Source: Sedimenticola sp. | GTDB taxonomy: Bacteria; Pseudomonadota; Gammaproteobacteria; Chromatiales; Chromatiaceae | Direction: 5' to 3' | Assembly: GCA_027083925.1 (NCBI GenBank) | Contig: JALWMK010000033.1 | Coordinates: forward strand, 211 to 64,210 | Length of the DNA: 64,000 bases | Shown here: positions 5,734 to 52,298 of the stretch, in pieces | Position numbering within the stretch: position 1 is the stretch's first letter | Layout of the letters: each line of letters begins with the position of its first letter | Made by a program: the position numbers and the translations under genes | Notes under the pieces: generated by a model | Told to the model about the DNA's origin: nothing | What the model saw: the letters and a program-made list of their open reading frames with translations, nothing else | Databases searched by the model: none

Positions 5734-5736
5734 CCG

Positions 5737-7764: not shown

Positions 7765-9979
7765 CCGGGTTGAGGTGAAAAACGCCCCGCTCCATCCAGA
7801 TGGCCTTCACGGCATTTACCGACGCTTCGCTTACCCTTTGCAGGCCGTTGCGTTTGCTCCAGTCTTCGATTTCCTTGATCAGCATGCCGCGCACCCTATC
7901 CGGTGCTTTATTGATGCGTTCCCTGGCGGCTGTTTCCCAGGGCATGGTTTCCCTGTGTGGTTCTGAACCGGATTGAAACGATTGCAATACCTGCTGCACG
8001 AATGCGGGTTCGATGGTATCCATGTCTTTCCGGGCGGCAATTTCCTGAGCCGCCTTGCGGGTCATGTCGCGGCAGAACCCTGGTGGCACGTTGTTCAGCA
8101 GGGCTTCTGCCTCCCTCTCCCATCGTATTTTTGCAGTGGGGCGGGACTCCCGGCCCGGCGTATCGGATTTTCCGGCTGCGGTGAAGGGACAGCGACTATT
8201 GTTGCTGTCCGGGACGGGTTCTTCTGTGGCTGAGGTGGCAGCCATTTGCCCTTCCATGGCCTTGCGTGCTTCGGCCAGTCCTGCTTCAGCGGTTGTCAGG
8301 CTGATTTCTGTCAGCCCCTGGTTTTTTGCATGGTTTTCGATGTGCTGCCGGGAGCTGTCGCGCATAAAACCCTCGGGTACGCGCATGAGCCGGGCAAGGG
8401 CTGCGGCCTGCCATTGCAGGGGGGGCTGTATTGCATCGGCCTGGAGGCCTGTGCTGTCTTGATTGCCAGGAAGAGTCGCTGCCGCTGTTCCCGGCTGAAA
8501 GCGGGCAACAGGGACGTTCTCGTCAAGAAAGGCCTGGATGTGCGTGGCCTCCACGATCTGACTGCCTGTGGTGCGGGCTTTCTTTTCTGCGCGCATGCTC
8601 AGGTTGCCGCGCAGGCTGAGATCCTTGATGGTGAGCAGTAGCGCGGTGGCTGCTTCGCTCCAGCGCATGATGTTGTGTGCTTCGGGCTTGCGCTTGAGGT
8701 CGCCACGATCATAGGCTTCGACGATTTCTCCCATGGCCTGCTCTGCGTGGCCGGGCATGAGCTGGGCGGTGGCTTCTTCGACGATATTCTCGGTGATGAC
8801 GGTATGGCCTTTTTCCTGGGCGTAGCGCAGGATGGCCATGCGCGCCATGCTGCGCACGAATGAGGGTACCCGTTTCATGCGGGTTTCCGCCTCGTGGGTC
8901 CAGGATGTGCTCACGGCTGCCAGCCTGTCTACCTGGGGTTGGTGCTCGCGCTGGCTGAGCAGTACAGCGCAGGGAGCATCGTTAAGCAGATGCTCGGCGT
9001 TTCCGCCAATGTCCAGTTCCGGGTCAGCGTGGATGCCGGTGGTTCCCAGTACCAGCAGGGAAGGTTCGATCTCGTGCAGGTAGCGGTTGATGACTTCGTG
9101 GGGCTTGCCGTCCAGTAGTATGGTTTCCACTTCCATGCCGTAGTCTTTGGCGATGGACTGCACCACGGACAGATGTCCCTGGTAGATCTTTGCCAGGCCG
9201 GAGTCGATGATTTCCTCGTGGAGCTTTTCCTGCTCCTGAAACTTGAATACCTTGCCTGCTTCTTCCGATAATACCCCGGCAATGCGGTTGAAAGCGACAT
9301 AGTGATAATAGGGGTCGAATGCAGATACCACTTTTATTTCTGCGCCCCAGGTTTTTGCCAGACTCAGGGCGGTGAGCAGGCCGCCGTAGGATTTGGCAGA
9401 GCCATCTACGCCTACTACGATTGGTCCGTCAGCGAGTTGGCGGACGGGGTCTTTGATGGTCAGGGTGTCGATGTTGCTGCGCCGTGATACCCGCTGGCAG
9501 ACCGTGCCCAGACGGCTGCCCTTGACAGCGCCAAGGCCAAGGGCTCCCATGATCAGCAAATCGTAGTTGCCGCTGTTGGCTTCGTTCACCAGTTCGCGGT
9601 AGTTTTTTCCTTCCAGGGAGCGGCGTTGCACCCGTAGTTTTTCTCCGGCGGCGGTTTCCACCTGATCCAGATAGGAGTCGGTGATTATCGACAGTCCCCG
9701 GGTGATCAGATCATCATGTACATCGCGCTGGCGCTCCAGTTCCTGCTCTTCACGAAACTGTGCCGGAAGCCCGCCTTCCATTTGCCGAAACCGTGCATCA
9801 TGGAGCTTTGCGGCGTATACATGAGCCGCTGTAAGCTGCGCCTGGTATTGCCCCGCCAGGGCAATGGCTTCCAGGGTTCCCCGATTGGCATGATCTGAGG
9901 AATCCACAGCCAGCAGGATGGACGAGTAGCCAGGCAGTGCAGGCGTTGTTTCGGGTTTGTCTTGTGCTCGTGCATTCAT
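7745..9979 (-). CDS. tandem universal-stress-protein (USP) domains fused to five PCP_red-like repeats
   Basis: 744-aa ORF. Two USP-like halves (ILLAVDSSDHA...LLIMGALG and IVVGVDGSAKS...LLVLGTTG) are followed by five repeats such as WTHEAETRMKRVPSFVRSMA and WEREAEALLNNVPPGFCRDMT. Confidence 0.8.
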   Translation of the reverse strand: MNARAQDKPETTPALPGYSSILLAVDSSDHANRGTLEAIALAGQYQAQLTAAHVYAAKLHDARFRQMEGGLPAQFREEQELERQRDVHDDLITRGLSIITDSYLDQVETAAGEKLRVQRRSLEGKNYRELVNEANSGNYDLLIMGALGLGAVKGSRLGTVCQRVSRRSNIDTLTIKDPVRQLADGPIVVGVDGSAKSYGGLLTALSLAKTWGAEIKVVSAFDPYYHYVAFNRIAGVLSEEAGKVFKFQEQEKLHEEIIDSGLAKIYQGHLSVVQSIAKDYGMEVETILLDGKPHEVINRYLHEIEPSLLVLGTTGIHADPELDIGGNAEHLLNDAPCAVLLSQREHQPQVDRLAAVSTSWTHEAETRMKRVPSFVRSMARMAILRYAQEKGHTVITENIVEEATAQLMPGHAEQAMGEIVEAYDRGDLKRKPEAHNIMRWSEAATALLLTIKDLSLRGNLSMRAEKKARTTGSQIVEATHIQAFLDENVPVARFQPGTAAATLPGNQDSTGLQADAIQPPLQWQAAALARLMRVPEGFMRDSSRQHIENHAKNQGLTEISLTTAEAGLAEARKAMEGQMAATSATEEPVPDSNNSRCPFTAAGKSDTPGRESRPTAKIRWEREAEALLNNVPPGFCRDMTRKAAQEIAARKDMDTIEPAFVQQVLQSFQSGSEPHRETMPWETAARERINKAPDRVRGMLIKEIEDWSKRNGLQRVSEASVNAVKAIWMERGVFHLNPDDSRNG

Positions 9980-10070: not shown

Positions 10071-10116
10071 TCACCCGGCATCAACAGGGGCTGGGCAGGA
10101 AGTCAATGCCGGGTGA
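10071..10116 (-). terminator. 11-bp-stem hairpin downstream of the 42-aa ORF (possible terminator/attenuator, no U-tract)
   Basis: TCACCCGGCAT (10071-10081) is the perfect reverse complement of ATGCCGGGTGA (10106-10116). The loop is 24 nt and no T-run follows on the minus strand. Confidence 0.3.
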
Positions 10117-10119
10117 ATA

Positions 10120-10248
10120 TCAATGCAATAACCAGTAACCGACAATGTAACCGATAACCACCAGATTAATGATGCCGCCGATAATAGCCATGCCGTCTAA
10201 AAGGCTGGGCCGCCATTTTTGCCTTGTGGCCACTGTTGCTGACTTCAT
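10120..10248 (-). CDS. 42-aa single-pass membrane ORF (not in supplied track)
   Basis: My own translation: MKSATVATRQKWRPSLLDGMAIIGGIINLVVIGYIVGYWLLH. It starts 7 nt after the cupredoxin stop, has a weak SD, and is followed by the hairpin. Confidence 0.3.
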   Translation of the reverse strand: MKSATVATRQKWRPSLLDGMAIIGGIINLVVIGYIVGYWLLH

Positions 10249-10254
10249 GCCGGC

Positions 10255-10995
10255 TTACTTGAAAGTGAAGTCAACGGTTGCAGTGCCGCCGGTATCCACG
10301 GTCACTTTGGCTTTCTGGTTCTTCAACATGCCATGCCAGGCTTTGATGGTGTATTTACCCGGAGGAACATCTTTGATGGTGAAGCTGCCATCATCCGCAA
10401 CTTTGGCAAAGTACGGGTTTTTGGCAATGAAAACGAATCCGTGCATGAAGTCGTGGGCATCACATTCCACTTTCATGGCGGGTCCCTTCTTGACCTTGAT
10501 TGTGGATTTCACTACGCCGGGCTTGGGCTGACTGATATTTGTCAGGGTTTTTTTCGGCCCCTTGGCATCGCCGCGTATCAGTTCATAGGTGTGAATGTTA
10601 TGCAGGATGGGATCATCGTTTACGGCAGAAAGAACTGCCTTGTTTTTCATCACCTGGAGAAAGGGTTTGAACTCGCAGCCTTTCTGATCAATGGTGGCGT
10701 CGCCTACATCAGTAGGGAAGGGCTTGCCTTCCTTGACCTTCTCCAGATAAACCACAGCATCCATCAGGTGGCCGTTTTCCACCCGTACAAAGTCGATCTC
10801 GCGCACTCCGGTGCCACATACGTCGTTGTCCTTGGAAATGGTATATGTCTTTGGTGGCCGATCCTTGCCTGCAAATTTCACGCTGCCGGTAATGGTTCCG
10901 CCGTTGGAAACGCCGGTCTCCTTGTAGGCTGCCTGACTCGCCAGGGGCAAGGCGCAAAGACCGGCAATGCTGAGGGTAACGAGTGCTTTTTTCAT
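10255..10995 (-). CDS. secreted cupredoxin-like (type-1 copper) protein with CarboxypepD_reg-like beta-sandwich
   Basis: 246-aa ORF with a signal peptide (…LPLASQAAY). Candidate Cu ligands are LHNIH plus C-DA-H-DF-M, the same C-x2-H-x2-M loop spacing as amicyanin CTPHPFM. C-terminal DGSFTIKDVPPGKYTIKAWH. Confidence 0.7.
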   Translation of the reverse strand: MKKALVTLSIAGLCALPLASQAAYKETGVSNGGTITGSVKFAGKDRPPKTYTISKDNDVCGTGVREIDFVRVENGHLMDAVVYLEKVKEGKPFPTDVGDATIDQKGCEFKPFLQVMKNKAVLSAVNDDPILHNIHTYELIRGDAKGPKKTLTNISQPKPGVVKSTIKVKKGPAMKVECDAHDFMHGFVFIAKNPYFAKVADDGSFTIKDVPPGKYTIKAWHGMLKNQKAKVTVDTGGTATVDFTFK

Positions 10996-11018
10996 GGTGC
11001 TGTCTCCTGGGTATGGTT

Positions 11019-13415
11019 TCAGGCTGCCTGTTCAGGGTTGTCCTGTGCAGTCAGCAGTTCTTCTATCATTTCAATATATACGCTGCGTTTGACGCTGTCG
11101 TCGGCCTGCTTGAGGTTTGCCAGCAATATGCTGTTGGCAAGGTCGGTATCGAATTGACGCAGCGCACGGCCAATCAGCCTCGCTTCTTCTCCGGTGCCTA
11201 TGGTAACGCCATCGATAATCTTTTCGACTGCTTTGCGGGTAAATGATTCCTCCTGCAAAGGCTCCAGCAGCCTCGCCAGGCCCTTGGCTGCAGTGACGCG
11301 CACACCCATTTCACTGTCTTCCAGGCATTCCATGAGCCTGCGGGCAATGCTCAGGGCTGGGACATCACGTATAACCATGTGATCCGCCTTGAGCGGATCC
11401 TGACTGTTGAGAGATAGATGCACCAGGGCATCAATAGCCTGGATGCGCAGGGTGAATTCCGGGGCTTTCAGTGTTTCCACCAATGGAACCAGGGCGGCCC
11501 GGTTGCCGATATGGCTCAGTGCTCTGGCGCTGGCAATTTTCTGATCCAGATCGCCAATGGCCAATTGGGTGATCAGGGTGCCGACGGCGTCGGACAAACC
11601 GGCAAGCAGCGGGTTGCGCTGCGCCATGATGCCGATGGACTCTGCTGCTTCCCGGCGTACCGGGGCGGCATCGTCATTGAGCGCCTGGATCAGGGTTTGC
11701 AGTACCTCTGCCTCGTCGATATCTGCAAGCACATGCGCCGCCAGCCGGCGTATATCCTGCTGCGCATCGATTTTGCGGTTGGAGCGCATGCGTCGCATAA
11801 GTTCCTTGTTGTCTTCAACGATTTCCATGTATTCCAAAGTGGCTTCGTCCTGGATATCCTCTACCGGATGCGGGGTGGCAAGCATGGTTTCCACATTTGC
11901 CATGCTGATTGCATCCAGGGTGGACATGGCGGGTGCGACTTCGCCTTCGGCGACGATTTGGGCGGGTGTTTCTGGTAGATCGAGGTCAGTTTCTGCCGGT
12001 GTTGATGCTTCTGGCAGGTTTTCCTCGCTATCGTGCAAATCTTCCGCGCCTTCGATGCTGGTGTCCAGGGTCACTTCCACGGGAGCGGCGGCGGCCGGTG
12101 GCTCCGGAACGGTGATTTCCCCGTTCAATGCACCCATGATCAGATCCAGAGGCCGGGACAATGGCGCCTCTTTGTCATCCGGCTGTAAAATCAGGCCGGT
12201 TTTTTCCAGCTCCATCAAGGCTGCCAGGGCTGCCAGACGCACCACTTGCTGTTCATCCGTAATGGCCTTTTCCAGCGTACCGAGTACTTGTGCATCGATC
12301 TGCCCCAGGCTGCCAATGGCAGTGGCAGCCTCTTTTCGCACCATGGGATGGACGCTGCTGTCGGCTACTATCTCCAGCAGGTGCGTGATGGCGGATATGT
12401 TCCCGTTGGCCCCGAGGAGGGCGCAGGCAGCAGCAGCCGTTTCGGCAGCAGTATCGCGAATGTGATCGAGCACGACTTGAAAATTCGCTGCCGACAGTGG
12501 GTTGTCGGCAACAACCGGCAACAGCATGGAGTACAGGATGGCACGCACCTCAGGGTCGGGGTCAGCCAGCATGTCCTGGAATGCTTCTTCGATGTGCGGT
12601 GTATTGTCACTGTTTTGCGCCAGTCGGGTAACGGCCTTGAGCGATGCCTGGCGTACCTGGTTGTCTGGGTCGCGCAACAGCAGGGTCAGGGCGCTGAGGT
12701 AGGAAATGGCATTTTGTTTGGAAAGGGACAAGGCAGCTTCTGCACGCACGTCGGCGGCGGGATCCGTCAGCGCACGCCCCAAGGCTCTGGTGGCCTCGCT
12801 GGAGGGGGAGCGCGCCAACGCATGGGCTGCCCTGCGCCGGTGAATGGGGGTACTGTCCTGGTTCTGCAGCCGCTCGATGACCCGGGCTTCGCCATTGCTG
12901 GATATCCGGATCAGGGTATTGAGAATATCGGGTTCCATGTCCTGCTGGGTTTCATCACCAATAAGAGCAGCGAGGCGATCAACCGCTTTTTCCGCCTGTA
13001 GTGTTCCCAGCGCGTGAACAGCGGCCTTCTGCACATCCCACCAGGTGTCCCAGTCGTCGTCCCATTCCATGTTTTCCGGGCGCTCCAGGCAGATTTTCAG
13101 CAGGGGATCGATGGTATCGGGGTCTCCGATCTTGCCGAGCGCAACAGCCACCATGGTACACACCTCGCCACTGGGGTCATTCTCCAGGGATTCGATCAAC
13201 GCTGGCACCGCTTTTGGCGAACCAATATTTCCCAATGCCTCTGCGGCATCGATGGCAACGTCCAGATCCTCATCCCTGAGATGCTCAATCAGGGTTTCAA
13301 TGGGTGCCGCATCTCCCAGCAGGCCCAAGGCGCGGGCTGCATAGCAGCGATCTGCTTCATCACCAGTTTGAACAAGCTGGCACAAGGTGTCCACGGTTTC
13401 TCTGTATGTTGTCAT
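11019..13415 (-). CDS. cytoplasmic HEAT-repeat (PBS-lyase-type) protein with acidic central linker
   Basis: 798-aa ORF. Many repeats of the D..VR..AA.ALG..G pattern, no signal peptide, and an acidic, low-complexity middle region. Confidence 0.8.
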   Translation of the reverse strand: MTTYRETVDTLCQLVQTGDEADRCYAARALGLLGDAAPIETLIEHLRDEDLDVAIDAAEALGNIGSPKAVPALIESLENDPSGEVCTMVAVALGKIGDPDTIDPLLKICLERPENMEWDDDWDTWWDVQKAAVHALGTLQAEKAVDRLAALIGDETQQDMEPDILNTLIRISSNGEARVIERLQNQDSTPIHRRRAAHALARSPSSEATRALGRALTDPAADVRAEAALSLSKQNAISYLSALTLLLRDPDNQVRQASLKAVTRLAQNSDNTPHIEEAFQDMLADPDPEVRAILYSMLLPVVADNPLSAANFQVVLDHIRDTAAETAAAACALLGANGNISAITHLLEIVADSSVHPMVRKEAATAIGSLGQIDAQVLGTLEKAITDEQQVVRLAALAALMELEKTGLILQPDDKEAPLSRPLDLIMGALNGEITVPEPPAAAAPVEVTLDTSIEGAEDLHDSEENLPEASTPAETDLDLPETPAQIVAEGEVAPAMSTLDAISMANVETMLATPHPVEDIQDEATLEYMEIVEDNKELMRRMRSNRKIDAQQDIRRLAAHVLADIDEAEVLQTLIQALNDDAAPVRREAAESIGIMAQRNPLLAGLSDAVGTLITQLAIGDLDQKIASARALSHIGNRAALVPLVETLKAPEFTLRIQAIDALVHLSLNSQDPLKADHMVIRDVPALSIARRLMECLEDSEMGVRVTAAKGLARLLEPLQEESFTRKAVEKIIDGVTIGTGEEARLIGRALRQFDTDLANSILLANLKQADDSVKRSVYIEMIEELLTAQDNPEQAA

Positions 13416-13459: not shown

Positions 13460-13475
13460 TGCATTATTCATGCCA
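13460..13475 (-). promoter_or_regulatory. candidate sigma-54 (-24/-12) promoter for the HEAT/cupredoxin operon
   Basis: The minus strand reads TGGCATGAATAATGCA. GG-N10-GC spacing is kept and 10 of 12 specified positions of TGGCACG-N4-TTGCW match. It lies ~45 nt upstream of the ATG at 13415. Confidence 0.45.
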
Positions 13476-13799: not shown

Positions 13800-13815
13800 T
13801 GGCTTGGTTTTTGCT
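13800..13815 (+). promoter_or_regulatory. candidate sigma-54 (-24/-12) promoter for the cydA-like operon
   Basis: TGGCTTGGTTTTTGCT. GG-N10-GC spacing is kept and 10 of 12 specified consensus positions match. It lies ~60 nt upstream of the ATG at 13875. Confidence 0.45.
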
Positions 13816-13874: not shown

Positions 13875-14030
13875 ATGGCCGAGTTACCAGAAGAAGAAGT
13901 GAAATCCCCACCATCGGGGGAGCAAAACAATTGGGGAAAAAAGCTGTTTTTCGGCACCTTGATTGCGCTGCTGGCTTTTTTCTACTGGCTGCTGATCTAT
14001 TCCGGCGGCGTAACAGCCAGCCACGGCTAG
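13875..14030 (+). CDS. 51-aa single-pass membrane ORF (not in supplied track)
   Basis: SD AGGAG lies 7 nt upstream. Translation: MAELPEEEVKSPPSGEQNNWGKKLFFGTLIALLAFFYWLLIYSGGVTASHG. Confidence 0.45.
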   Translation: MAELPEEEVKSPPSGEQNNWGKKLFFGTLIALLAFFYWLLIYSGGVTASHG

Positions 14031-14043
14031 CCCGGAGGGAAAA

Positions 14044-14196
14044 ATGGAACAACAGAACAAGACGGGAGTTGCCGGCCAGTTGGCGGCAGTGGTGATTGCC
14101 ATTGCCATCATGCTGGCGTTCTTTTATGGGCTGGATCATCTTGTCATGGGTATGCAGGGATTGCCCTTGAATCTGGATTTGACTCCGGCAGGCTAA
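14044..14196 (+). CDS. 50-aa single-pass membrane ORF (not in supplied track)
   Basis: SD GGAGGG lies upstream. Translation: MEQQNKTGVAGQLAAVVIAIAIMLAFFYGLDHLVMGMQGLPLNLDLTPAG. It ends 5 nt before the cydA-like ATG. Confidence 0.45.
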   Translation: MEQQNKTGVAGQLAAVVIAIAIMLAFFYGLDHLVMGMQGLPLNLDLTPAG

Positions 14197-14201
14197 AACA
14201 A

Positions 14202-16103
14202 ATGAAGCAAACAGAATCTATACATACGATCGGCGGCCGTTTGGCGGCGATGCTGTTTTCGCTACTGGTGTTGCTGCTCTTTGGCATGGCGGCTGTGGCC
14301 CAGGCTGATGCCGGCATGGGTGGTACCCAGGAACGTATTGCGCCAATTGGCGAAGTGCGCCTGGCGGGGCAGCCGCCAGTTGAGGTGTCTGCAGAACCTG
14401 CCGCCATCCAGGAGCAGGAGACGCAGCTCAAGGCGGCGCCCCGGCCTGGCCGTTCCGATTATCCCAATGTCGGTGTCAGCAGCAGGGCCATCGTATGGGT
14501 TCTGGGCCAGATGCATCTGTTCTTTGGCGCGCTGGTACTGGCGGTACCCCTGTTTGTGCTGTTGATCGAACTGGTCGGGGTGTACACCCGTGATGACCGC
14601 TATGACGACATGGCGCATGAGTTCATGAAGATCAGCCTCACGGGTTTTTCCATAACCGCCATCTTTGGTGGGTCGCTGGCCCTGGCGCTGTTCCTGCTCT
14701 ATCCGGATCTGATGGGCTATTTGATGAATGTGTTTGGCGCCCAGTGGCTGGTATATGCGGGACTGTTCTTTTTTGAGAGTTTCTTTTTATACATTTACTA
14801 TTATGGGTGGAATGCGCTCCGTTATGGAAACCTGAAATGGGTGCATCTCACCCTGGGGCTGTTGTTGAATGCATCGGGCCTGACGATTATGGTGCTGGCC
14901 AATTCATGGGCGACTTTCATGATGGCGCCATCGGGAGTGAACGAGGTCGGTGCGGTTGTCGGCAATATCTGGGAGGTGATGAAAGGACCCTTGTGGAATC
15001 CCATCAACCTGCACCGTTTCATCGCAAACATTGCCTTTGGTGGTGCGGTGGTCGGCGCATACGCGGCGTTCAAGTTTCTCAGCGCCAAGGATCCGGTCAA
15101 GCGCGCCCATTATGACTGGATGGGTTATACCTCGAACTTCATCGCGATTCTGTCCTTCCTGCCGTTGCCTTTCGCGGGATATTGGCTGATGGCGGAGATC
15201 TATGCCTACTCGCAGCAGATGGGTATTACCGCCATGGGTGGTATTTTAGCCTGGCTGTTTATCGTGCAGGCGGTGCTTATCGGCACGATTTTGCTGGCGG
15301 GCAATTTCTACCTGTGGTCGGGGATGTCACGCACTGATGGTTCGGAACGCTACAAGGGGCTGATCAAGGTGATTGCCTTGGTGCTGGTGGTGAGCTTCCT
15401 GATCTGGGTAACGCCTCATACGCTGATCCTTTCCGCCTCGGAAATCTCTCTGCTGGGAGGGAGTCATCATCATATTCTCGGTCCTCTGGGCATCATGCCG
15501 GCAAAGAATATTGCGGTGAATCTGATGCTGATCGCAACTTTCCTTTCTTTCCAGCTCTATCGTCGTTCCGACAAGGTGGCCACGGTGCGCTGGGCGCCCA
15601 TGGGGAATGCGTTGATGGTTGCTGTGTATGTAGGTGCCGTGGTGAATATCATTTTCCTCGGCGTTTACTACGGCTACTTTACCAATACCGTGTACAAGGT
15701 GGGTTCTTCCGTTGCTCAGGTGGTTACCACCCTGGTGGTGATCGTTTTCGGGCTGGTTATCGATTCCCTGATGTTCAAGAAAGCCAAGGTTCTGCCGTCT
15801 CATTGGGGGCGCATTCCTGATCGTGCGCAGTATGCGTTGTTTGCGCTGCCTATTGCCTTTACCTGGCTTATGGCGCTGATGGGCTATGTGCGCTCTTCGG
15901 TAAAGACGCACTGGCATGTTTATACCGTAATGAAGGACAACTCGCCGGATAACTTCATTCCCACCATTGGCTATGCAGGAAACATGATCACCCTGGTGAC
16001 GGTGTTGTTCCTGCTGTGCGTACTGTTCATGTTCTGGGTGGCGAACCTGAGCGGCAGTAAACAGCCGAAGCCTGGCGCTGTCGCAGCCGGAGGTGAGGCA
16101 TGA
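14202..16103 (+). CDS. CydA-like membrane protein (cytochrome bd oxidase subunit I superfamily), no CydB partner
   Basis: 633-aa polytopic ORF. Segments align by eye to E. coli CydA: GQMHLFFGALVL (His19 region), GLFFFESFFLYIYYYGW (FFLESTF...FFFGW), LANSWATFMMAP (ANGWMQNP) and NLHRFIANIAFGG (His186 region). There is an extra N-terminal helix. The GRQPW signature is not recognisable (GYVRSSVKTHW). Confidence 0.8.
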   Translation: MKQTESIHTIGGRLAAMLFSLLVLLLFGMAAVAQADAGMGGTQERIAPIGEVRLAGQPPVEVSAEPAAIQEQETQLKAAPRPGRSDYPNVGVSSRAIVWVLGQMHLFFGALVLAVPLFVLLIELVGVYTRDDRYDDMAHEFMKISLTGFSITAIFGGSLALALFLLYPDLMGYLMNVFGAQWLVYAGLFFFESFFLYIYYYGWNALRYGNLKWVHLTLGLLLNASGLTIMVLANSWATFMMAPSGVNEVGAVVGNIWEVMKGPLWNPINLHRFIANIAFGGAVVGAYAAFKFLSAKDPVKRAHYDWMGYTSNFIAILSFLPLPFAGYWLMAEIYAYSQQMGITAMGGILAWLFIVQAVLIGTILLAGNFYLWSGMSRTDGSERYKGLIKVIALVLVVSFLIWVTPHTLILSASEISLLGGSHHHILGPLGIMPAKNIAVNLMLIATFLSFQLYRRSDKVATVRWAPMGNALMVAVYVGAVVNIIFLGVYYGYFTNTVYKVGSSVAQVVTTLVVIVFGLVIDSLMFKKAKVLPSHWGRIPDRAQYALFALPIAFTWLMALMGYVRSSVKTHWHVYTVMKDNSPDNFIPTIGYAGNMITLVTVLFLLCVLFMFWVANLSGSKQPKPGAVAAGGEA

Positions 16104-16933
16104 GCGTACTGTTAAAGACATTGGGCTTCAGCCTGGGACTGACCCTGCTCTTTACCTTGGTAACCTACCTGCTTCCCCAGGTAAAGGGTGAGGCCCCGGT
16201 GGAAAAGGCGGTGGATCTGGGTTCCCTGACCATGGAAAGCTTCATTGCCCTGGGGGACGAAATCTTCCACAACAAGGGTACCTGTACCCTGTGCCACCAG
16301 CCCGCACCCTTGGGACGAGCGCCGGATATTGGGGGAGAAGACATGGTAGCGCTTGCCAACAAGCATCTGGCCGATGAACGTTACCAGGGAGATGCAAAGA
16401 ATGCCGAGGAATATATCCGGGAATCCCTGCTTCATCCTGGCAAATATGTTGTCGCCGGTTGGGGGAAAAAAGGCAGCAACGATACCGAGTCTCCAATGCC
16501 TATGGTGGACAAGCCCCCCATACAGCTTACGCCGATAGAGATCGATGCCGTGATCGCCTGGTTGGAGGCAAAGGATGGTGGCGAGGTTACCGTGACTCTG
16601 CCCACAGCGGAAGCGGCAGCGGAAGTGGCTTCGGCAGCAACTGCCGACGACAGCGGCAAAGCTCCTGTCCTGGCGACAACAGCGGTAGAAGCACTTGCCA
16701 AATACGCCTGTACTTCCTGCCATGCAATGGACAGTAATGACGTCTTGGTTGGCCCGGGGTTGGTGGATATCGGCTCCCGCCTGAGCAAGGAAGAGCTGCG
16801 GCAAAGCATTGTTGAGCCGAATGCGGTGGTGGCTGAGGGCTTCCCGCCTGCCATGCCGCCTGATTTTGCATCCAAGATGACAGTGAGTGAGCTGGAGATG
16901 ATTGTCAACTATCTGGCGGAGAAGAAAGGATGA
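16100..16933 (+). CDS. membrane-anchored dihaem c-type cytochrome
   Basis: 277-aa ORF with an N-terminal hydrophobic anchor and two CXXCH motifs (CTLCH, CTSCH). ATGA overlap with the cydA-like stop. Confidence 0.85.
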   Translation: MSVLLKTLGFSLGLTLLFTLVTYLLPQVKGEAPVEKAVDLGSLTMESFIALGDEIFHNKGTCTLCHQPAPLGRAPDIGGEDMVALANKHLADERYQGDAKNAEEYIRESLLHPGKYVVAGWGKKGSNDTESPMPMVDKPPIQLTPIEIDAVIAWLEAKDGGEVTVTLPTAEAAAEVASAATADDSGKAPVLATTAVEALAKYACTSCHAMDSNDVLVGPGLVDIGSRLSKEELRQSIVEPNAVVAEGFPPAMPPDFASKMTVSELEMIVNYLAEKKG

Positions 16934-19359
16934 AAGGTTTCCGGATTACCGCATTCTGGCAAGCTTTGATTGCCGCTGTACTGGCATGGCTGATTTTCGA
17001 TAACGCCTTTCCTCCGGTGCTGCCGAAGACCCTGATGATCCAGTACATGATCATCACCATTATCGGCATCCTTTTGTATTTTGCCTTTGATGACAAGAAA
17101 TGGTCTGAATTCAAGGCTCCCATCCTGGCCACCCTGCAGGATGATGACAAGGCGTTGTTGCGCGGGTTCTTTCTCATAGCCATTCCCTTGCTGGCGGCCT
17201 ATGTGACCTATGGCGTGGTCAAGCCGTCGCTTGAGGCGCCGGTGGAACTGCGCCAGGTACATCCCGCGCCCCCCTCCGCAGTCAGGGCATACAACAAGAC
17301 CTTTGATCTGGCAACACTGGAGAATCCGGTACGCCATGATATTCTGGATGCCCTGGCGAAGGACAAGGAAGCGGGCTGGAGCAAATACCATGAATCAGTA
17401 GCCGCAGGACGGGATGTCTACTACACAAACTGTTTCTATTGCCACGGTGATCTGCTGGATGGCAAGGGACAATATGCCCATGGCTTCAGCCCCCAGCCGA
17501 TCAATTTTCAGGATCCTACTGTCATCCCGCAATTGCAGGAATCTTTCCTGTTCTGGCGCATTGTTACTGGTGGCCCGGGGCTGCCGGTAGAAGGCACGCC
17601 CTGGAATTCCGCCATGCCCGTATGGCATGAAATGCTGGAAGAGAACGATGTCTGGAATGTGATCAATTTTATCTTTGATTACAACGGGCAAGTGCCGCGC
17701 ATCTGGGACCCCGAAATTTCCAGAACCGTAACCGGCATGAAAGATGAAGTGCTGGCTCGCCGCAAGAACATCATGGGCAAGGAGTTGTACCAATTTCGCT
17801 GTGAGGTCTGCCATGGTGAGAACGGTGTCGGTGATGGCGTAGCGGCAGAGTTCATGTACCCCAAGCCCCGTGATTTCAGTCTGGGTCTGTTTAAGTACAA
17901 AAGCTCTCCGGGCACCCAGTTACCCCGGGATGAGGATCTGTTTAACACGATAAAAACCGGACTGCCCGGCACAGCTATGCCTGGCTGGGGTCTCAAGGGG
18001 CGCGCCCTGCTCACCGACGAGCAGATTCGCAGCCTGATCCCGGTGATCAAGGGCTTTGACATCACTATGGCCTGGCCGCCAGAGGATGCAGATGAGGAAG
18101 CCTTTGATGATGACGGTTTCTATACCAAAACGGATTTCCGGGTGATCACCGGGGTCGAGCCGATAACTGGGCAGATTGCCTATTCCGAAGAATCGGTGGA
18201 AAAAGGCAGGCTGGCGTTCCTAAAGTCCTGTTCCGAATGTCATGGTGATGATGGCAGGGGCAATATTCAGTCCGGGAAAAAGCTGGAGGATGACTGGGGT
18301 AACCGTATCTGGCCACGGAATCTGACCAAGCCCTGGACCTGGCGCGCTACCCAGTCACTGGCCGCCACCGATAAAGAGCGGGATGAGACCATCAAGGCGA
18401 TCTATGCCCGACTGTCCATCGGCATTCCCGGTACGCCCATGCCCGCGCATCGCGCCCTGGAAGAAGGCAACCCGGATCCGGTGCGCCTGGAAGACCGCTG
18501 GCATATCTCCAACTTCGTGTACAGCCTGCGGGAAACTGCAGTTCAGCCCCAGGATGCTCCTGTTGTCAGCAGCAAGAAGCTGGAGGCCGATCTGCCATCG
18601 ACTGTAGATGATGAGCGATGGGCTGAGGCGCCGCCGGTAACCCTGCACCTGGTTCCCAACGTGATCAAGGAGGATCGTTTGTTCACCCCGCTGAACGACG
18701 CAGTTACTGTGCGTGTGTTGTATAACGATGAGGAAATCGCCTTCCTGCTGGAGGTGGATGATCGCACCATGAGTGTGCCGGGAGATAAGTATTTTACTGA
18801 ACTGCAGGACGAGAATCTGGAAATGCACCCGGATGCATTCGCCATACAGTTTCCCCATGAAGATGCCTACACGTCTGCACCCATGGTAAGGAAGCCGCTG
18901 TACCGCCATGGTGATGCCAAGCATAAAACCACCATTTGGTACTGGAATGCGGGCAGCCTGGAACCGAAGAGAGACCCCGTTGCCATGCTGCTGGATGGCA
19001 CAGGCCCGGACAACAAACTCAAACCCCGGGAGAAAGAAGCCAGCCTCAGCGCCACCGGTGAGTGGCAGGGAGGGCGTTGGCAGGTGCTGATGAAACGTCC
19101 CAGATATGCCGCAAATGGTGATGTATTGTTCGATGAAGGGCAGTTTATTCCTGTATCATTTGCCAACTGGGACGGCAGCAACGGGGAGGCTGGAGGCAGA
19201 CATACCCTGACTACCTGGTACTGGCTGATACTGCCGCCGGAAACGAATGTACTGAAAGTGTATGGGGTGCCGGCTGGTATTGGATTTCTGGTGTTTCTTG
19301 CCGGAGTGCTGCTGGTGCGGTCACAGCGTAAGGAACAAATCAACCCAGCCACCAAATAG
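16930..19359 (+). CDS. trihaem c-type cytochrome fused to an EB_dh/DOMON-like (ethylbenzene dehydrogenase gamma-type haem b) domain, with N- and C-terminal membrane anchors
   Basis: 809-aa ORF. Three N-terminal hydrophobic helices and the motifs CFYCH, CEVCH and CSECH. The C-terminal ~200 aa fit the EB_dh pattern (DERWAEAPPVTL...DAFAIQFP...TIWYWNAG...GRWQVLMKRP...VSFANWDG). Terminal helix GIGFLVFLAGVLLV. ATGA overlap with the upstream gene. Confidence 0.75.
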   Translation: MKGFRITAFWQALIAAVLAWLIFDNAFPPVLPKTLMIQYMIITIIGILLYFAFDDKKWSEFKAPILATLQDDDKALLRGFFLIAIPLLAAYVTYGVVKPSLEAPVELRQVHPAPPSAVRAYNKTFDLATLENPVRHDILDALAKDKEAGWSKYHESVAAGRDVYYTNCFYCHGDLLDGKGQYAHGFSPQPINFQDPTVIPQLQESFLFWRIVTGGPGLPVEGTPWNSAMPVWHEMLEENDVWNVINFIFDYNGQVPRIWDPEISRTVTGMKDEVLARRKNIMGKELYQFRCEVCHGENGVGDGVAAEFMYPKPRDFSLGLFKYKSSPGTQLPRDEDLFNTIKTGLPGTAMPGWGLKGRALLTDEQIRSLIPVIKGFDITMAWPPEDADEEAFDDDGFYTKTDFRVITGVEPITGQIAYSEESVEKGRLAFLKSCSECHGDDGRGNIQSGKKLEDDWGNRIWPRNLTKPWTWRATQSLAATDKERDETIKAIYARLSIGIPGTPMPAHRALEEGNPDPVRLEDRWHISNFVYSLRETAVQPQDAPVVSSKKLEADLPSTVDDERWAEAPPVTLHLVPNVIKEDRLFTPLNDAVTVRVLYNDEEIAFLLEVDDRTMSVPGDKYFTELQDENLEMHPDAFAIQFPHEDAYTSAPMVRKPLYRHGDAKHKTTIWYWNAGSLEPKRDPVAMLLDGTGPDNKLKPREKEASLSATGEWQGGRWQVLMKRPRYAANGDVLFDEGQFIPVSFANWDGSNGEAGGRHTLTTWYWLILPPETNVLKVYGVPAGIGFLVFLAGVLLVRSQRKEQINPATK

Positions 19360-19414
19360 GTCGTCCTCAGTGCTTCAAACAGGACGGCTGAGGGCGATAT
19401 ATTTGGTGGCCGGG
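19360..19414. repeat. short copy of a dispersed palindromic element (partner at 51730-51913)
   Basis: GGCTGAGGGCGATATATTTGGTGGCCGGG is identical at 19386-19414 and 51885-51913. GTGCTTCAAACAGGACG (19370-19386) is present inverted at 51746-51762. It starts right after a stop codon. Confidence 0.8.
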
Positions 19415-19437
19415 TAAATAGCTACATCGAGAAACTT

Positions 19438-20034
19438 ATGATTTGCAAAACCGTATTGCTGGTTTTTTGGCTGCTGTGGATGCCCTTGTTGCAGGCTGAC
19501 AGCCAGCTTGGGGAGGATGCGGCAGTACCTGGAATTATCGAGGCGCCCCCCGGGGGCGACTTTCTCCTGCATACCAGCAAGGGGTCTTTTTCCCTGAAGG
19601 ACTATCGGGGCAAGGTGGTGTTGCTGTATTTCGGCTACACCAAATGTCCGGATGTTTGCCCGACCTCTCTTTCCTATTTGGCACAGGCGTTCAATGAGCT
19701 CAATGATGACGAGCTGAAAAAGGTCGTTGGTGTTTTTGTCAGTGTTGACCCCAAAAGGGATACCTTTGAGTTGCTGGATGAATATGTGCAATACTTTCAT
19801 CCCAATTTCATTGGTGTCACCGGCAGTGAAAAAGAGCTTTCTGCTGCTGCAGCGCTGTATGGCGCCCAATACTATGAAGTAGAGCTAGAAGACTCGGCCT
19901 TTGGCTATGCGGTCAATCACTCTGCCGCCACCTACCTGATTGCACCGAACGGGGAGCTGCGCTTTATTTTTCCGCACGCTACATCGCCGATGGTGATCAG
20001 TGAGGCCATTCGTTATGTGATGGATGGGAATTAG
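19438..20034 (+). CDS. SCO1/SenC family copper chaperone (thioredoxin fold)
   Basis: 198-aa ORF with an N-terminal anchor, the CPDVCP (CxxxC) motif and a downstream conserved His (AVNHSAATYLI). Confidence 0.9.
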   Translation: MICKTVLLVFWLLWMPLLQADSQLGEDAAVPGIIEAPPGGDFLLHTSKGSFSLKDYRGKVVLLYFGYTKCPDVCPTSLSYLAQAFNELNDDELKKVVGVFVSVDPKRDTFELLDEYVQYFHPNFIGVTGSEKELSAAAALYGAQYYEVELEDSAFGYAVNHSAATYLIAPNGELRFIFPHATSPMVISEAIRYVMDGN

Positions 20035-20274: not shown

Positions 20275-20439
20275 CAACATTGAGCTAAAGCATGGTTTTG
20301 ACAGGCTTTGATGGAACTTTCTGAAACTGGTCTGTTTCGTGCATGGAGTTAGCCAGGCTGTCGGCTGCTTTTGAGTTTTGGTTGTTGCAACCAAGCCCTT
20401 TACTGTCGGCAAATTAACAATAGACCTGGAGGAAATCCA

Positions 20440-21546
20440 ATGGTTGTAAGAGTCTCAACGGGGCGCGCTTTACTGGCCGCCACACTGGGGGTCGGAATGG
20501 CAGTAACAGCGCAAGCTGCCAGCTATCCGGATATCGGACCCTTACCGCAGTTAAAAGTCGACAAGGCAAAAGCCGAGCTGGGCAAGCGCCTGTTCTTTGA
20601 TGTGCGCTTGTCGGGTGATGCTGGCATCTCCTGTGCCGATTGTCATGTGCCAGAAAAGGCGTATGCCAGCAAGGAGGCACTGTCTCCGGGCTACCCTGGA
20701 AACGGGCATTTTCGCAATGCCTCTTCCTTGGTGAATACGGCCCACAAGAACATCTGGAACTGGGATGGCCGTATCGGCACCAACCTCAATGACATGACCC
20801 GTGAGATGATCACGGAAGACTACATCATGAACATGGACATGCGTATCATGCAGGAGCGCTTGAAGCAGGATCCTCTGTACGTCAAGATGTTCAAGGACGC
20901 AGGTTATGGTGAGCCTTCCAATGGCTCTGTGCGCAAGGCGATTCCCGAATATCTGAAAACCCTCACTTCTACCGGCTCCCCGTTTGACAAGGGCACAATG
21001 TCTGCTTCTGCAAAACGTGGCATGAAATTGTTCAAGGGCAAGGCGGGCTGTATTCAGTGCCACAATGGCCCCTTGCTAAGCGATCTGAAGCCCCACAATA
21101 CTGGTGTTCCGGAGAATTTCGATGTATTCCTGGATCCGATGAATCACCAGGCCTTCATGGCCTTTACCATGTTCCAGGGTGTGCCAGACTACAGGAATCT
21201 GAAGCGAGATCCGGGATACTTCAATGTGACCCTGGAGAAGCAGGACATGGGCAAGTTCATCACCCCATCCCTGCGGGAACTCAAGTACAGTGCTCCGTAC
21301 ATGCACAATGGCATGATCAAAACCCTGTCCGAAGTGGTCGGGTTCTACAATGCTGGTGGAGGGAAGGATCGCAACAAGAGCAAGAAGCTCAAGCCTCTTG
21401 GTCTGAGCGCCAATGAACAGAAAGATCTGGTGGCGTTTCTAGAGGCTCTTTCCGGTGATCCGCTGACCAGCCCCAAATACGTATGGGATCAGCCCTATCC
21501 GGCAGAGTATCCTGTAATCGAAAATTGGACGCAGGTCCGTAACTAA
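20440..21546 (+). CDS. dihaem cytochrome c peroxidase (CCP/MauG family; IdrP-like by context)
   Basis: SD GGAGGA then ATG at 20440 and a signal peptide (…AVTAQAASY). Motifs CADCH and CIQCH, plus the PYMHNG Met-ligand region. The longer track ORF from 20371 lacks a plausible start context. Confidence 0.9.
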   Translation: MVVRVSTGRALLAATLGVGMAVTAQAASYPDIGPLPQLKVDKAKAELGKRLFFDVRLSGDAGISCADCHVPEKAYASKEALSPGYPGNGHFRNASSLVNTAHKNIWNWDGRIGTNLNDMTREMITEDYIMNMDMRIMQERLKQDPLYVKMFKDAGYGEPSNGSVRKAIPEYLKTLTSTGSPFDKGTMSASAKRGMKLFKGKAGCIQCHNGPLLSDLKPHNTGVPENFDVFLDPMNHQAFMAFTMFQGVPDYRNLKRDPGYFNVTLEKQDMGKFITPSLRELKYSAPYMHNGMIKTLSEVVGFYNAGGGKDRNKSKKLKPLGLSANEQKDLVAFLEALSGDPLTSPKYVWDQPYPAEYPVIENWTQVRN

Positions 21547-21561: not shown

Positions 21562-22788
21562 ATGAGTATAAAGAAAATCGCTCCTACCCTCGTTGCGGTT
21601 GCCGTTGCGACTGTACTGACAGCCTGTCAGGCGCAGGAGACCAAAACGGGAAGCGCTGTATCCGGAAAATCCATGGCTGCCAAGACCGCGCAATCCGGCC
21701 CGCCGCCGCTGGCTCCCCTGGGTGCGCCGCCGATACCGCCGGACAACAAACAGACGCCTGCCAAGATCGAACTGGGCAAGATACTGTTTTTTGATCCCCG
21801 TCTTGGCGGTGATGCCTCTACCGGCTGTTCCACCTGCCATGAGCCTGACCAGGGTTGGGCGTGGGCGGAAGATTTTTCCCGCGGTTATCCTGGTACGGTT
21901 CACTGGCGCAACAGCCAGACCATCATCAACAGCGCTTATTATGCGCGTAACTTCTGGGCAGGTTCTGTGCCTTCGCTGGAGAAACAAGCGCCTTCCGCCG
22001 CCAAGGGAGGTGTAGCCGGTAACGGTGAAAACGATATCATGGAATCCCGCCTGGCGCTGATTCCCGGATACCGCAAGCGCTTCAAAGAAGTGTTTGGCAC
22101 TGAATGGCCGTTGATCGGCGACGCCTGGAGAGCCATTGCCGCATTCGAGCGCACCCTGGTGCAACGGGATACCCCGCTGGACAAGTACCTGCTGGGCGAC
22201 AAGAACGCCCTGACCGAACAACAGGTGCAGGGCATGGCGTTATTCAACGGCAAGGCAGGCTGTATCCAGTGCCACAATGGCGAACTGGCTTCGGATCAGG
22301 ACTATTACAACATAGGTGTTCCACCGAACAAACGCTGGGAAGAAGATGGTCTGGCTCAGGTTACCTTCCGCTTTGAGCTTTATGCCAAAGGAATGACCGA
22401 AGAAGGGTATCGAACCACCAAGGCCGATCCTGGCTTCTATTTCCGCGGCAAAAACACATGGGACAAAGGCAAGTTCCGTACTCCATCGCTGCGCTATACG
22501 GCATTCACCGCGCCCTATATGCATAACGGGATCTTCTACACTATGGAAGATGTGGTGGATTTCTACAATCGCGGCGGCTTCGATGAAGATGGCCGTACCA
22601 CTGCCTTTGCCGAAAACAAATCCAAATTGATCAAACCCCTTGGTTTGACGGATGAAGAGAAAGAGAATCTGGTAGCGTTCCTGGAAGCCTTCTCTGGTGA
22701 GGAAATGCTGATGGAGAAGCCGGCAATGCCGGAATATGCGCCTCTGTTCACCAGGGCTGAACTGGAAGCTGCACAGGAGGAAAAATAA
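21562..22788 (+). CDS. dihaem cytochrome c peroxidase, lipoprotein-type signal (second CCP; IdrP-like by context)
   Basis: 408-aa ORF with SD AGGAG, a lipobox LTAC, the motifs CSTCH and CIQCH, and PYMHNG. Confidence 0.9.
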   Translation: MSIKKIAPTLVAVAVATVLTACQAQETKTGSAVSGKSMAAKTAQSGPPPLAPLGAPPIPPDNKQTPAKIELGKILFFDPRLGGDASTGCSTCHEPDQGWAWAEDFSRGYPGTVHWRNSQTIINSAYYARNFWAGSVPSLEKQAPSAAKGGVAGNGENDIMESRLALIPGYRKRFKEVFGTEWPLIGDAWRAIAAFERTLVQRDTPLDKYLLGDKNALTEQQVQGMALFNGKAGCIQCHNGELASDQDYYNIGVPPNKRWEEDGLAQVTFRFELYAKGMTEEGYRTTKADPGFYFRGKNTWDKGKFRTPSLRYTAFTAPYMHNGIFYTMEDVVDFYNRGGFDEDGRTTAFAENKSKLIKPLGLTDEEKENLVAFLEAFSGEEMLMEKPAMPEYAPLFTRAELEAAQEEK

Positions 22789-23363
22789 TGAGCGATACAA
22801 AGAAAAAAGATGAAACAGCGGCTGACCATGGTCGATGCATGTTGAATCGCCGGCAGTTTCTGATGTACTCAGGTACTACGGCTGTAGCTGCCAGCACCAT
22901 ATCTATCAGCCTTTTCCCGGGTGAGGCTCAGGCCAAGGCGCGGGTGGTAACTTATCCGCGCATGAAGGTCGCTCGCCTGAGTGAGCTAAAAGATAACCAG
23001 CCAGTGGATTTCAACTATCCTGACGATGGCCCCAACTCCCAATGCTTCGTCGTAAAGATGGACGGCGCCAAGGCTGGTGGTGGTGTTGGTTCCCAGCGTG
23101 ATGTGGTGGCATTCAGCTACCTTTGTACGCACCAGGGTGGTCCGATGAATGGTAAATATCAGGCCGTGGGCGAGCACCGTGTGCTGGGGCAGTGCCCCTT
23201 GCACTTGTCCACCTATGATTTGACCCGCCACGGGATTATCGTGTCCGGGCAGGCTTACCAGAGTATCCCTCAGGTATTACTGGAGGTCGATGGCGATGAT
23301 ATATACGCCGTTGGCATTATGGGGCTGTTGTTCGGCCGTAACGAAAACCTGATGGATACCTAG
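22788..23363 (+). CDS. Rieske [2Fe-2S] small subunit of AioB/IdrB family, Tat-exported
   Basis: 191-aa ORF with the twin-arginine motif NRRQFLMY and the Rieske motifs CTHQGG and CPLH. TAATG overlap with the upstream CCP. Confidence 0.85.
   Translation: MSDTKKKDETAADHGRCMLNRRQFLMYSGTTAVAASTISISLFPGEAQAKARVVTYPRMKVARLSELKDNQPVDFNYPDDGPNSQCFVVKMDGAKAGGGVGSQRDVVAFSYLCTHQGGPMNGKYQAVGEHRVLGQCPLHLSTYDLTRHGIIVSGQAYQSIPQVLLEVDGDDIYAVGIMGLLFGRNENLMDT

Positions 23364-51729: not shown

Positions 51730-52298
<569 letters not shown>

Follow-up and report, generated by a model that had tools for sequence, protein, structure and literature searches.

What chemistry is carried out by a CydA homologue that has no CydB and is encoded together with c-type cytochromes? 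This question is raised by a 64,000-nucleotide stretch of Sedimenticola sp. DNA (assembly GCA_027083925.1, contig JALWMK010000033.1, forward-strand positions 211 to 64,210), all of which we call the window. A sequence-only reading of window positions 14202 to 20034 had described such a homologue, operonic with c-type cytochromes and an EB_dh domain, and had left O2 reduction, quinol oxidation, and the handling of another substrate as its possible functions. That list was fair, and the description itself was confirmed by the PF01654 match, the operon genes, and our scans. At 13875-19359, five genes specify a cytochrome bd-like membrane complex of the OR-N2 type that lacks CydB, and the same strand runs on into genes for a predicted iodate reductase (Idr), a continuation of the array that is absent from the earlier reading. 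Our preferred interpretation, which we hold tentatively and at somewhat short of even confidence, is that the complex takes electrons from cytochrome c to reduce O2 or a related oxidant and has a haem wire in common with the iodate reductase.

A check of the window's open reading frames (ORFs) found the genes where they had been reported, with the whole module on the plus strand. Its genes, together with the copper chaperone gene that follows, are as follows:

13875..14030, plus strand: small protein of 51 aa with a single transmembrane (TM) helix; ATG at 13875 with AGGAG upstream (the mechanical ORF start is 13854)
14044..14196, plus strand: small single-TM protein of 50 aa; GGAGGG upstream, ending 5 bp before the start of the CydA-like gene
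14202..16103, plus strand: CydA-like protein of the OR-N2 type, 633 aa; PF01654, E 1.2e-17, over residues 102-613
16100..16933, plus strand: membrane-anchored dihaem cytochrome c, 277 aa; PF00034 and PF13442
16930..19359, plus strand: trihaem cytochrome c/EB_dh protein, 809 aa; PF13442, PF00034, PF09459 (E 7.7e-17), and TIGR03477 (2e-21)
19438..20034, plus strand: SCO1/SenC copper chaperone with a CxxxC motif (CPDVC); PF02630, E 3.6e-40

The genes for the two membrane-anchored cytochromes c are coupled in translation to the CydA-like gene through ATGA overlaps at 16100-16103 (CydA-like/dihaem) and 16930-16933 (dihaem/trihaem), and 78 bp (19360-19437) separate the trihaem/EB_dh gene from SCO1. 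The overlaps, the gap, and five c-haem sites had all been described and were all recovered. To determine how far this arrangement extends, we scanned one genome per species and found at least 590 stretches that encode a relative of the CydA-like protein; because of this number, the module is not a chance occurrence. The related loci analysed below are the best 80 of these, with 55-92% identity, from Gamma-, Alpha-, Beta-, and Zetaproteobacteria, Magnetococcales, Nitrospinota, Nitrospirota, and 'Deltaproteobacteria'. Relatives make up more than 4,400 clusters at 90% identity in the non-redundant protein database, and an exhaustive HMMER search gave 169 clusters at 50% identity (E<=1e-30). Neither cydB nor cydDC was found in Pfam scans of the larger ORFs across the 64-kb window (small ORFs were partly scanned), and both are also absent from the conserved neighbours of the 80 related loci, which belong to other families. 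The reported lack of these genes is thus upheld. Directly upstream of the CydA-like gene, relatives of the 51-aa ORF were detected by tblastn in 28 of the 80 loci, and the 50-aa ORF is conserved in 29; Profundibacter amoris has annotated ORFs of 41 and 42 aa in the same place. The 51-aa ORF has no Pfam match. These two one-helix peptides are probably subunits of the complex.

Judged by its sequence, the CydA-like protein is a member of the catalogued OR-N2 subfamily and not a new kind, because its signature residues and operon make-up match those given by Murali, Gennis & Hemp (2021). Their supplementary Table 6 uses a Nitrospira sp. protein as the OR-N2 reference, with 14 TM helices and the residues H99, Y183, E190, H213, H269, N434/M430, S563, W569, Y197, and Y199. 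In the window protein, Y185, E192, H215, H271, M432, S565, W571, Y199, and Y201 all lie at a constant offset of +2 from this reference, with H105 here set against H99 there. In an alignment of 82 sequences, Y185, E192, H215, H271, M432, W571, Y199, and Y201 are 100% conserved. The same supplement describes several cytochromes c and an EbdC homologue as the typical content of OR-N2 operons, which is also the composition of the window operon, and adds that the electron donor is unclear and may be cytochrome c.

The module is also the same as the cluster of a bd-like oxidase, an alternative NxrC, and two c-type cytochromes that has been described as conserved in Nitrospira, Nitrospina, and anammox bacteria (Lucker 2013, Mundinger 2019). 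That cluster shows high transcription, occurs in duplicate in Nitrospira, and has cupredoxin-like genes beside it. In papers from 2024 and 2025, OR-N proteins are regarded as putative cytochrome c-oxidizing O2 reductases of unconfirmed subunit composition and function. The sequence-only reading had likewise placed the homologue among proteins catalogued in surveys of the bd superfamily and uncharacterized, and the match to OR-N2 and these papers agree with it. The window protein thus resembles OR-N2 of Nitrospira in its signature, its 14 helices (13 plus a signal peptide here), its cytochromes c, its EbdC homologue, and its cupredoxin neighbours. Module duplication, as in Nitrospira, is also seen in related loci that lack idr. 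However, the host here is a sulfur-oxidizing gammaproteobacterium, the module is single copy, the dihaem-c/EB_dh protein has the first cytochrome c domain joined to it in one chain, and the linkage is to an AioAB-type iodate reductase rather than to NXR.

The tandem duplications were observed in loci L052, L055, L056, L062, L072, and L073 (Rhodospirillaceae, an Acidiferrobacteraceae metagenome-assembled genome [MAG], and unclassified proteobacterial MAGs, all non-idr). The two copies are separated by an extra pair of dihaem and monohaem cytochromes c, and the upstream CydA-like copy, of ~710-730 aa, is ~43% identical to the window protein and keeps the E192 equivalent.

Next, we examined the haem ligands. 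Solved CydA structures align to residues ~95-300 only, by phmmer and by a family profile, and the alignments stop after TM5. H105 aligns by both methods with the conserved TM1 His of Geobacillus CydA, and H271 aligns with the TM5 His of mycobacterial CydA; our own residue count and the table of Murali et al. equate them with E. coli His19 and His186, where the earlier reading had put its two His landmarks. The glutamate of the FFFES motif was a different matter. It had been taken for Glu99, but this residue, E192, corresponds to E. coli Glu107 in the PDB alignments and in the published table, and it is Y185 that aligns to Geobacillus Glu101 (E. coli Glu99), so that Tyr replaces Glu. H215 corresponds to E. 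coli His126 by the same two sources. H105, Y185, E192, H215, and H271 are invariant in 82 of 82 family members from several phyla. M432 appears to keep the position of Met393, going by the published table and its invariance rather than by an alignment of our own. Of the ligands that had been proposed for checking, therefore, His19 and His186 are kept and Met393 apparently is, but Glu99 is not. The E. coli Glu445 position is a Ser according to Murali et al. (S565), at least 90% conserved in a 36-sequence alignment.

The differences from canonical CydA extend beyond the ligands. The GRQPW motif is absent, as reported, and a Q-loop, which had also been suggested for checking, was not found: the CydA alignments stop after TM5, and in an AlphaFold2 model membrane helices stand in the loop's place. 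The stretch that replaces the loop, residues 301-460, is the most conserved of the protein. After TM5 (residues 296-633), the residues invariant in the 82 sequences are H303 (in an HYDWM motif), M307, E332, M340, M345, E414, H423, M432, K435, M557, M560, W571, H572, and D579, with H406 at 96%; those on the predicted inner side of the whole protein are E123, D135, E140, K212, H215, H303, Y304, and D305. A conserved HH/HHH copper motif was considered and rejected, since only H423 is invariant within SHHH (H422, 51%; H424, 30%). The extra N-terminal helix of the earlier description looks like a cleavable Sec signal peptide, judging from its end (AVAQA/DAG, the slash marking the cleavage site), and 77 of the 82 homologues have a comparable N-terminal hydrophobic stretch. 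The linker that follows is indeed rich in Pro and Glu, but it is about 60 aa long rather than ~70 and is also rich in Ala and Gly; it is poorly conserved and modelled with a low predicted local distance difference test score (pLDDT).

The AlphaFold2 model, built with 28 sequences (pLDDT 83.5, predicted template modelling score 0.82), has 13 long helices after the signal peptide. In a Foldseek search of the PDB with the whole protein, the sole significant matches were CydA chains (E 1e-8 to 1e-5; target-normalized TM-score, 0.50-0.59), followed by much weaker matches to CydB chains. The C-terminal two thirds contain eight helices that are not those of CydA. Residues 296-633 modelled alone (pLDDT 79) matched nothing in the PDB below an E value of 0.08, and a Pfam scan of this part at E values up to 10 gave no match. 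ActC appeared with the whole protein only at E 0.17-0.41 and TM-scores of 0.12-0.27 and did not match residues 296-633; no haem-copper oxidase was among the Foldseek matches listed for either model, and Pfam gave no COX1 match. We therefore rejected a known quinone-binding or haem-copper fold for the C-terminal two thirds. A fused CydB or internal duplication was likewise rejected, because hhalign comparisons of residues 86-296, 297-462, and 463-620 with one another gave probabilities of 0.1-0.4%. In the predicted topology, H271 and M432 would be placed at the outer face, which fits a b558-type His/Met haem; H105 would lie one third into the membrane, E192 at mid-membrane, and K212, H215, H303, and D305 at the inner face.

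Could the protein still be part of an ordinary cytochrome bd quinol:O2 oxidase, with cydB and cydX elsewhere in the genome? It shares with canonical CydAB(X) (E. coli bd-I and bd-II, Geobacillus, and mycobacteria) the fold of the first five helices, an N terminus on the outside, and the positions of His19, Glu107, His126, His186, and, by the published table, Met393. NCBI and JGI name its relatives 'cytochrome ubiquinol oxidase subunit I', a name that fits this idea and is probably misleading. However, CydB, the Q-loop, and GRQPW are missing, Glu99 and Glu445 are replaced by Tyr and Ser, and there is a signal peptide. The eight extra helices carry invariant His residues (303, 423, and 572) and Met residues (307, 340, 345, 557, and 560), and the Pfam score is just 64 bits. 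In addition, translational coupling of the gene to cytochromes c recurs in about 80 genomes, cydB was not found among the ORFs scanned in the 64-kb window, and cytochromes c replace quinol as the likely redox partner. An ordinary bd oxidase is therefore highly improbable and close to refuted.

The dihaem cytochrome gene follows the CydA-like gene in 79 of the 80 loci, and the trihaem/EB_dh protein is present in 75. Of their five CxxCH sites, the 277-aa protein has two (residues 62 and 204) and the 809-aa protein three (residues 168, 291, and 434). The four scorable sites and their distal Met residues are invariant or nearly so in 70-79 homologues, with Met133 and Met252 of the dihaem protein conserved in 79. 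The 809-aa protein has three N-terminal TM helices, three cytochrome c domains, an EB_dh domain (EbdC/NxrC-like), and a C-terminal TM anchor; in more distant, non-idr loci it is split into a protein of ~260 aa (the three TM helices and first haem domain) and one of ~510 aa. CcoP-type domains were detected in it, and its middle two haem domains resemble the Kuenenia dihaem protein 6h5l_B (E 3e-29).

The EB_dh domain matches 2ivf_C (E 9e-6) and has the fold of the gamma subunits of type II dimethyl sulfoxide reductases (EbdC, SerC, ClrC, and NxrC). Here, unlike in those subunits, it forms one polypeptide with three cytochrome c domains and four TM helices, and the neighbouring molybdenum enzyme is of the AioAB type, which has no gamma subunit. 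His758 occupies the position of the EbdC ligand Lys201 (74% of homologues have His there and 14% Met), the region of Met108 varies, and K655, 96% conserved, does not align to an EbdC ligand. By these comparisons, haem b binding by the EB_dh domain is plausible, predicted to be of a type other than the strict Met/Lys type of EbdC. In its working mode only, the assembly recalls cbb3-type oxidases, in which a membrane catalytic subunit is fed by anchored mono- and dihaem cytochromes c; these are likewise associated with low oxygen and with a Sco/SenC-type chaperone. The catalytic subunits are not homologous, however, and a copper site here is only a possibility.

To the right of SCO1, after a 337-bp gap, the plus strand carries idrP1, idrP2, idrB, and idrA, in that order and with short gaps:

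20371..21546, plus strand: IdrP1-like dihaem cytochrome c peroxidase/MauG; PF03150 (1.9e-33), with TIGR04039 and TIGR03791 below cutoff
21562..22788, plus strand: IdrP2-like dihaem cytochrome c peroxidase/MauG; PF03150 (9.9e-39)
22788..23363, plus strand: IdrB/AioB-like Rieske 2Fe-2S subunit; TIGR02694 (119.9 bits; cutoff, 95.65), with a twin-arginine translocation (Tat) signal, TIGR01409
23378..26071, plus strand: IdrA/AioA-like molybdopterin large subunit with a 3Fe-4S Rieske_3 domain; PF18465, PF00384, PF01568, and TIGR02693 (389.8 bits; cutoff, 359)

The best PDB relatives of the IdrA-like protein are AioA/AroA (263 bits), and it is 63-66% identical to alphaproteobacterial proteins from clusters of like composition. 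Because the AioAB-like pair adjoins two dihaem peroxidase genes, P1 and P2, which is the published criterion that separates Idr from Aio, we predict that these genes encode an iodate reductase; membership in the Idr clade is inferred from gene content. Sedimenticola thiotaurini is listed as an idr carrier in a published Idr paper. The function of Idr has been established by an idrA knockout in Denitromonas, by activity staining and mass spectrometry in Roseovarius azorensis, and by expression of MAG-derived clusters in E. coli, and sulfur oxidizers with Idr were reported in 2026 from oxygen minimum zone (OMZ) MAGs. The window genes resemble the known idrABP1P2 sets (Pseudomonas sp. SCT, Denitromonas iodatirespirans, R. 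azorensis, and the OMZ MAGs) in the AioA-like 3Fe-4S molybdenum subunit, the Tat-exported Rieske subunit, and the two adjacent peroxidase-like genes, and the host is a sulfur oxidizer like those of the OMZ MAGs. In the window, the order is P1-P2-B-A, and the bd-like module and SCO1 precede it. The database names of IdrA-like relatives, 'arsenate reductase (azurin) large subunit' and 'arsenite oxidase large subunit', are probably misleading.

We then determined how often the module and idr occur together. In one clade of Gamma- and Alphaproteobacteria, drawn from a rough neighbour-joining tree, 28 of 32 informative loci have idr after the module, with gene order and orientation preserved. Outside it, idr accompanies the module in 1 of 21 informative loci, a Nitrospinota MAG (L076) in which the two are adjacent and on different strands. 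Among cultured organisms, the complete array is carried, for example, by Sedimenticola hydrogenitrophicus (L031), Aestuariirhabdus sp. (L029), and P. amoris (L082); R. azorensis, N. marinus, and A. sediminilitoris do not appear by name among the matches listed. Within the literature library searched, we found no paper joining idrA with cytochrome bd, or a cytochrome bd-like protein with iodate. In Parvularculaceae (L028, 15219-19577; also L026), two other proteins take the place of idr, one of 504 aa that lacks a Pfam match and one of 926 aa with a cytochrome c domain at its C terminus; this may be a different periplasmic partner of the module.

These counts bear on whether the two units are partners at all. 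They could be independent neighbours, held together by a shared low-oxygen regulon or a mobile island, with Idr receiving its electrons by way of bc1 and soluble cytochrome c, the route in Pseudomonas sp. SCT. The occurrence of idr without the module in Roseovarius sp. 2305UL8-3 (L081) and in published idr islands is consistent with this, as are the 20 of 21 informative loci outside the clade in which the module stands without idr, the 337-bp gap between SCO1 and idrP1, and the published description of Idr as a horizontally transferred island. On the other hand, the place and orientation of idr are kept in 28 of the 32 loci of a clade that spans two proteobacterial classes, the sole outside case is again idr adjacent, and the gap contains no convincing terminator, only weak stem-loops. 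We consider mere neighbourhood unlikely.

Our preferred reading, a cytochrome c-fed reductase, would work as follows. Electrons would arrive from the periplasm by way of the five c-haems and the EB_dh haem, move on to a b558-type haem on H271 and M432 near the outer face, and then reach a haem on H105. There, O2 or a related small oxidant (O2 and H2O2 have been proposed to arise from iodate reduction) would be reduced, while E192, K212, H215, and the HYDWM motif would conduct protons to the site from the cytoplasm. The complex would be made together with IdrAB and the two peroxidases and would share the membrane-anchored haem wire with them under low oxygen; alternatively, it may remove O2 or H2O2 formed during iodate reduction. 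We rank this reading first mainly because the invariant mid-membrane Glu and the inner polar funnel suit a buried, proton-consuming site. The loss of the Q-loop, the quinol-binding residues, and GRQPW, for which Lucker (2013) is also a source, and the translational coupling to two cytochromes c suggest that the donor has switched away from quinol. SCO1 and the blue-copper protein, both related to copper, accompany the module. The linkage to idr also counts in favour of this reading. In addition, one published model of iodate respiration needs a terminal oxidase for internally produced O2, and R. azorensis reduces iodate only under O2 limitation and not anoxically.

Several points weigh against it. 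Because Glu445 is replaced by Ser and Glu99 by Tyr, the classical di-haem O2 site is not intact, and the topology in which the ligands were placed was set by hand, with the AlphaFold2 helices, the signal peptide, and the positive-inside rule as guides. Oxidase and iodate reductase alike would act as electron sinks, so that their genetic coupling is not what the model would naturally predict. The same module is also reported to adjoin NXR in strictly anaerobic anammox bacteria, where an O2 reductase makes little sense. The membrane haem protein of a periplasmic reductase operon is usually a quinol dehydrogenase, as in the Nap, Nrf, and Tor operons, which speaks for a link to quinone. Finally, Roseovarius sp. 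2305UL8-3 carries idr without the module, cloned idrABP1P2 alone raised iodate reduction in E. coli, and the original Idr papers reported no conserved neighbours.

The anammox and operon arguments lead to a different proposal, that the complex links the quinone pool and the periplasm much as alternative complex III does. A new quinol site would pass electrons via b-haems and six periplasmic haems to IdrAB and IdrP1P2, and in nitrite oxidizers and anammox bacteria the flow would be reversed, from NXR to quinone. This is the sole reading that fits all contexts with one chemistry, since the neighbouring molybdenum enzyme accepts electrons here and the NXR of aerobic Nitrospira and anammox bacteria donates them, and it has been proposed for the NXR-linked copies (Lucker 2013, Mundinger 2019). 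That the idr-linked modules form one clade suggests coadaptation, and residues 301-460, in place of the Q-loop, could hold a new substrate site. However, all known quinol-binding elements of CydA are gone, and residues 296-633 have no significant match to NrfD/ActC, cytochrome b, or another quinone fold (best E, 0.08). The invariant mid-membrane Glu and the inner polar residues suit quinol oxidation feeding the periplasm less well, and recent literature favours a cytochrome c donor. Given this balance, a quinone link is a serious but rather doubtful alternative to the cytochrome c-fed reductase.

The genes divergent from the module bear on cofactors and regulation:

10255..10995, minus strand: secreted blue-copper (cupredoxin-type) protein, 246 aa; C-terminal part with PF13620 and PF14686 (CarboxypepD_reg-like)
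11019..13415, minus strand: CpcE/CpcF-type HEAT-repeat protein, 798 aa, divergent; PF13646 (2.8e-59), with NF058502 and NF058515 below cutoff
7745..9979, minus strand: protein with two Usp and four PCP_red (BchB C-terminal) domains, by domain matches
5737..7764, minus strand: AhbD/NirJ2-type radical SAM/SPASM protein with three PCP_red domains; TIGR04055 (317 bits) and TIGR04545 (307 bits), both below their cutoffs of 500, and PF04055, PF13186, and PF08369
4330..5733, minus strand: HemY-type protoporphyrinogen/coproporphyrinogen oxidase; TIGR00562 (249.5 bits; cutoff, 97.85)
1398-4001, minus strand: PAS sensor histidine kinase, a possible regulator of the cluster
17-1426, minus strand: sigma-54-dependent response regulator, a possible regulator of the cluster

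The cupredoxin neighbour named in the sequence-only reading is a blue-copper protein: although it has no cupredoxin match in Pfam, its ligands H132, C178, H181, and M184 (C-x2-H-x2-M, amicyanin-like) are invariant in 23 sequences. By this pattern, the product of 10255-10995 is probably a blue-copper electron carrier of the module's system. It is found in 30 of the 80 loci, and SCO1 lies in the cluster in 15. This conservation is consistent with the earlier suggestion of a copper site, which would be a candidate site at most. Zetaproteobacteria and their relatives (L066, 3119-4897; L068; L074) have a protein with a NosZ-like beta-propeller and a cupredoxin domain near the module, and in L066 ABC-transporter genes also lie there.

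The HEAT-repeat protein is a neighbour in 35 of the 80 loci and lies downstream of idrA in L081 and L082; the Usp-(PCP_red)4 protein is present in 35, the AhbD/NirJ2-like radical SAM gene in 27, and the HemY-type gene in 19. In the window, this set is divergent from the module; in non-idr loci, it is arranged in other ways around the duplicated module. The tetrapyrrole-type genes (4330-13415, minus strand; also L052, L056, L073, L080, and L082) accompany the module regardless of idr. In P. amoris, a ferrochelatase gene adjoins that for a Crp/Fnr-type regulator, and in the Nitrospinae MAG L049 a HemL-like aminotransferase and a LytB-UbiA fusion are adjacent. The accessory genes may secure the haem supply of a complex that needs eight or more haems, or they might make or insert a special cofactor, such as a modified haem. 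Our literature search on PCP_red/PF08369 proteins found nothing relevant.

A bolder proposal is that, across a widespread clade of marine alpha- and gammaproteobacteria, the OR-N2 complex is a dedicated membrane partner of the iodate reductase, as a bc1-independent electron route to IdrAB or as an O2/H2O2-consuming oxidase, possibly with new cofactors (His/Met copper, or extra or modified haem). The candidate copper or extra haem site may lie in the C-terminal two thirds, and the HemY, AhbD/NirJ-like, PCP_red, and CpcE/F-like HEAT genes may supply a modified haem. We would not expect this combination to hold.

With respect to regulation, the pair of sigma-54 activator and PAS kinase recurs beside the module in 5 other loci, and a Crp/Fnr-type regulator lies upstream in alphaproteobacterial loci. 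Two outward-facing sigma-54-like -24/-12 motifs were observed, at 13460-13475 (minus strand) and 13800-13815 (plus strand), each 45-60 bp before a gene start. These motifs only hint at such control, as the window contains 41 matches versus 55 expected from shuffled sequence.

The rest of the window contains housekeeping, pil, sox, and transport genes. At 50089-51741 (minus strand) and 50122-51729 (plus strand), two ORFs of ~540 aa cover each other almost fully, of which the minus-strand ORF has no Pfam match. A partial sox cluster at 58329-62252 (minus strand) encodes a 5'-nucleotidase-like SoxB-type protein and a SoxA/TsdA-type cytochrome c. The closest relatives of the CydA-like protein, 92-98% identical, are from Thiolapillus sp. 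and Sedimenticola MAGs, which are sulfur-oxidizing Gammaproteobacteria, and the sox genes fit such a host as well as the recently proposed coupling of sulfide oxidation to iodate reduction.

The OR-N bd-like proteins are the presumed terminal oxidases of Nitrospira and Nitrospinota, major organisms of the marine and wastewater nitrogen cycle, and are also found in the NXR gene clusters of anammox bacteria. Despite fifteen years of genome papers, their function has stayed obscure because these hosts grow slowly and are genetically intractable. The family was already catalogued; new here are the linkage of idr to the bd-like module and the haem and copper accessory gene set, of which we found no published description. 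The linkage touches two unsettled matters in iodate reduction, how electrons reach Idr and what becomes of the reactive by-products proposed for it, at a time when sulfur-oxidizing iodate reducers have been newly proposed for OMZs. If the complex is an oxidase in this context, it may be part of a cryptic oxygen cycle. Taken together, these results show that the module is common in ordinary proteobacteria, cultured isolates included, and that one of its clades is tied to iodate reduction, an easily assayed activity. Therefore, whether an OR-N2 complex is an oxygen reductase or is coupled to quinone becomes directly testable in cultivable carriers.

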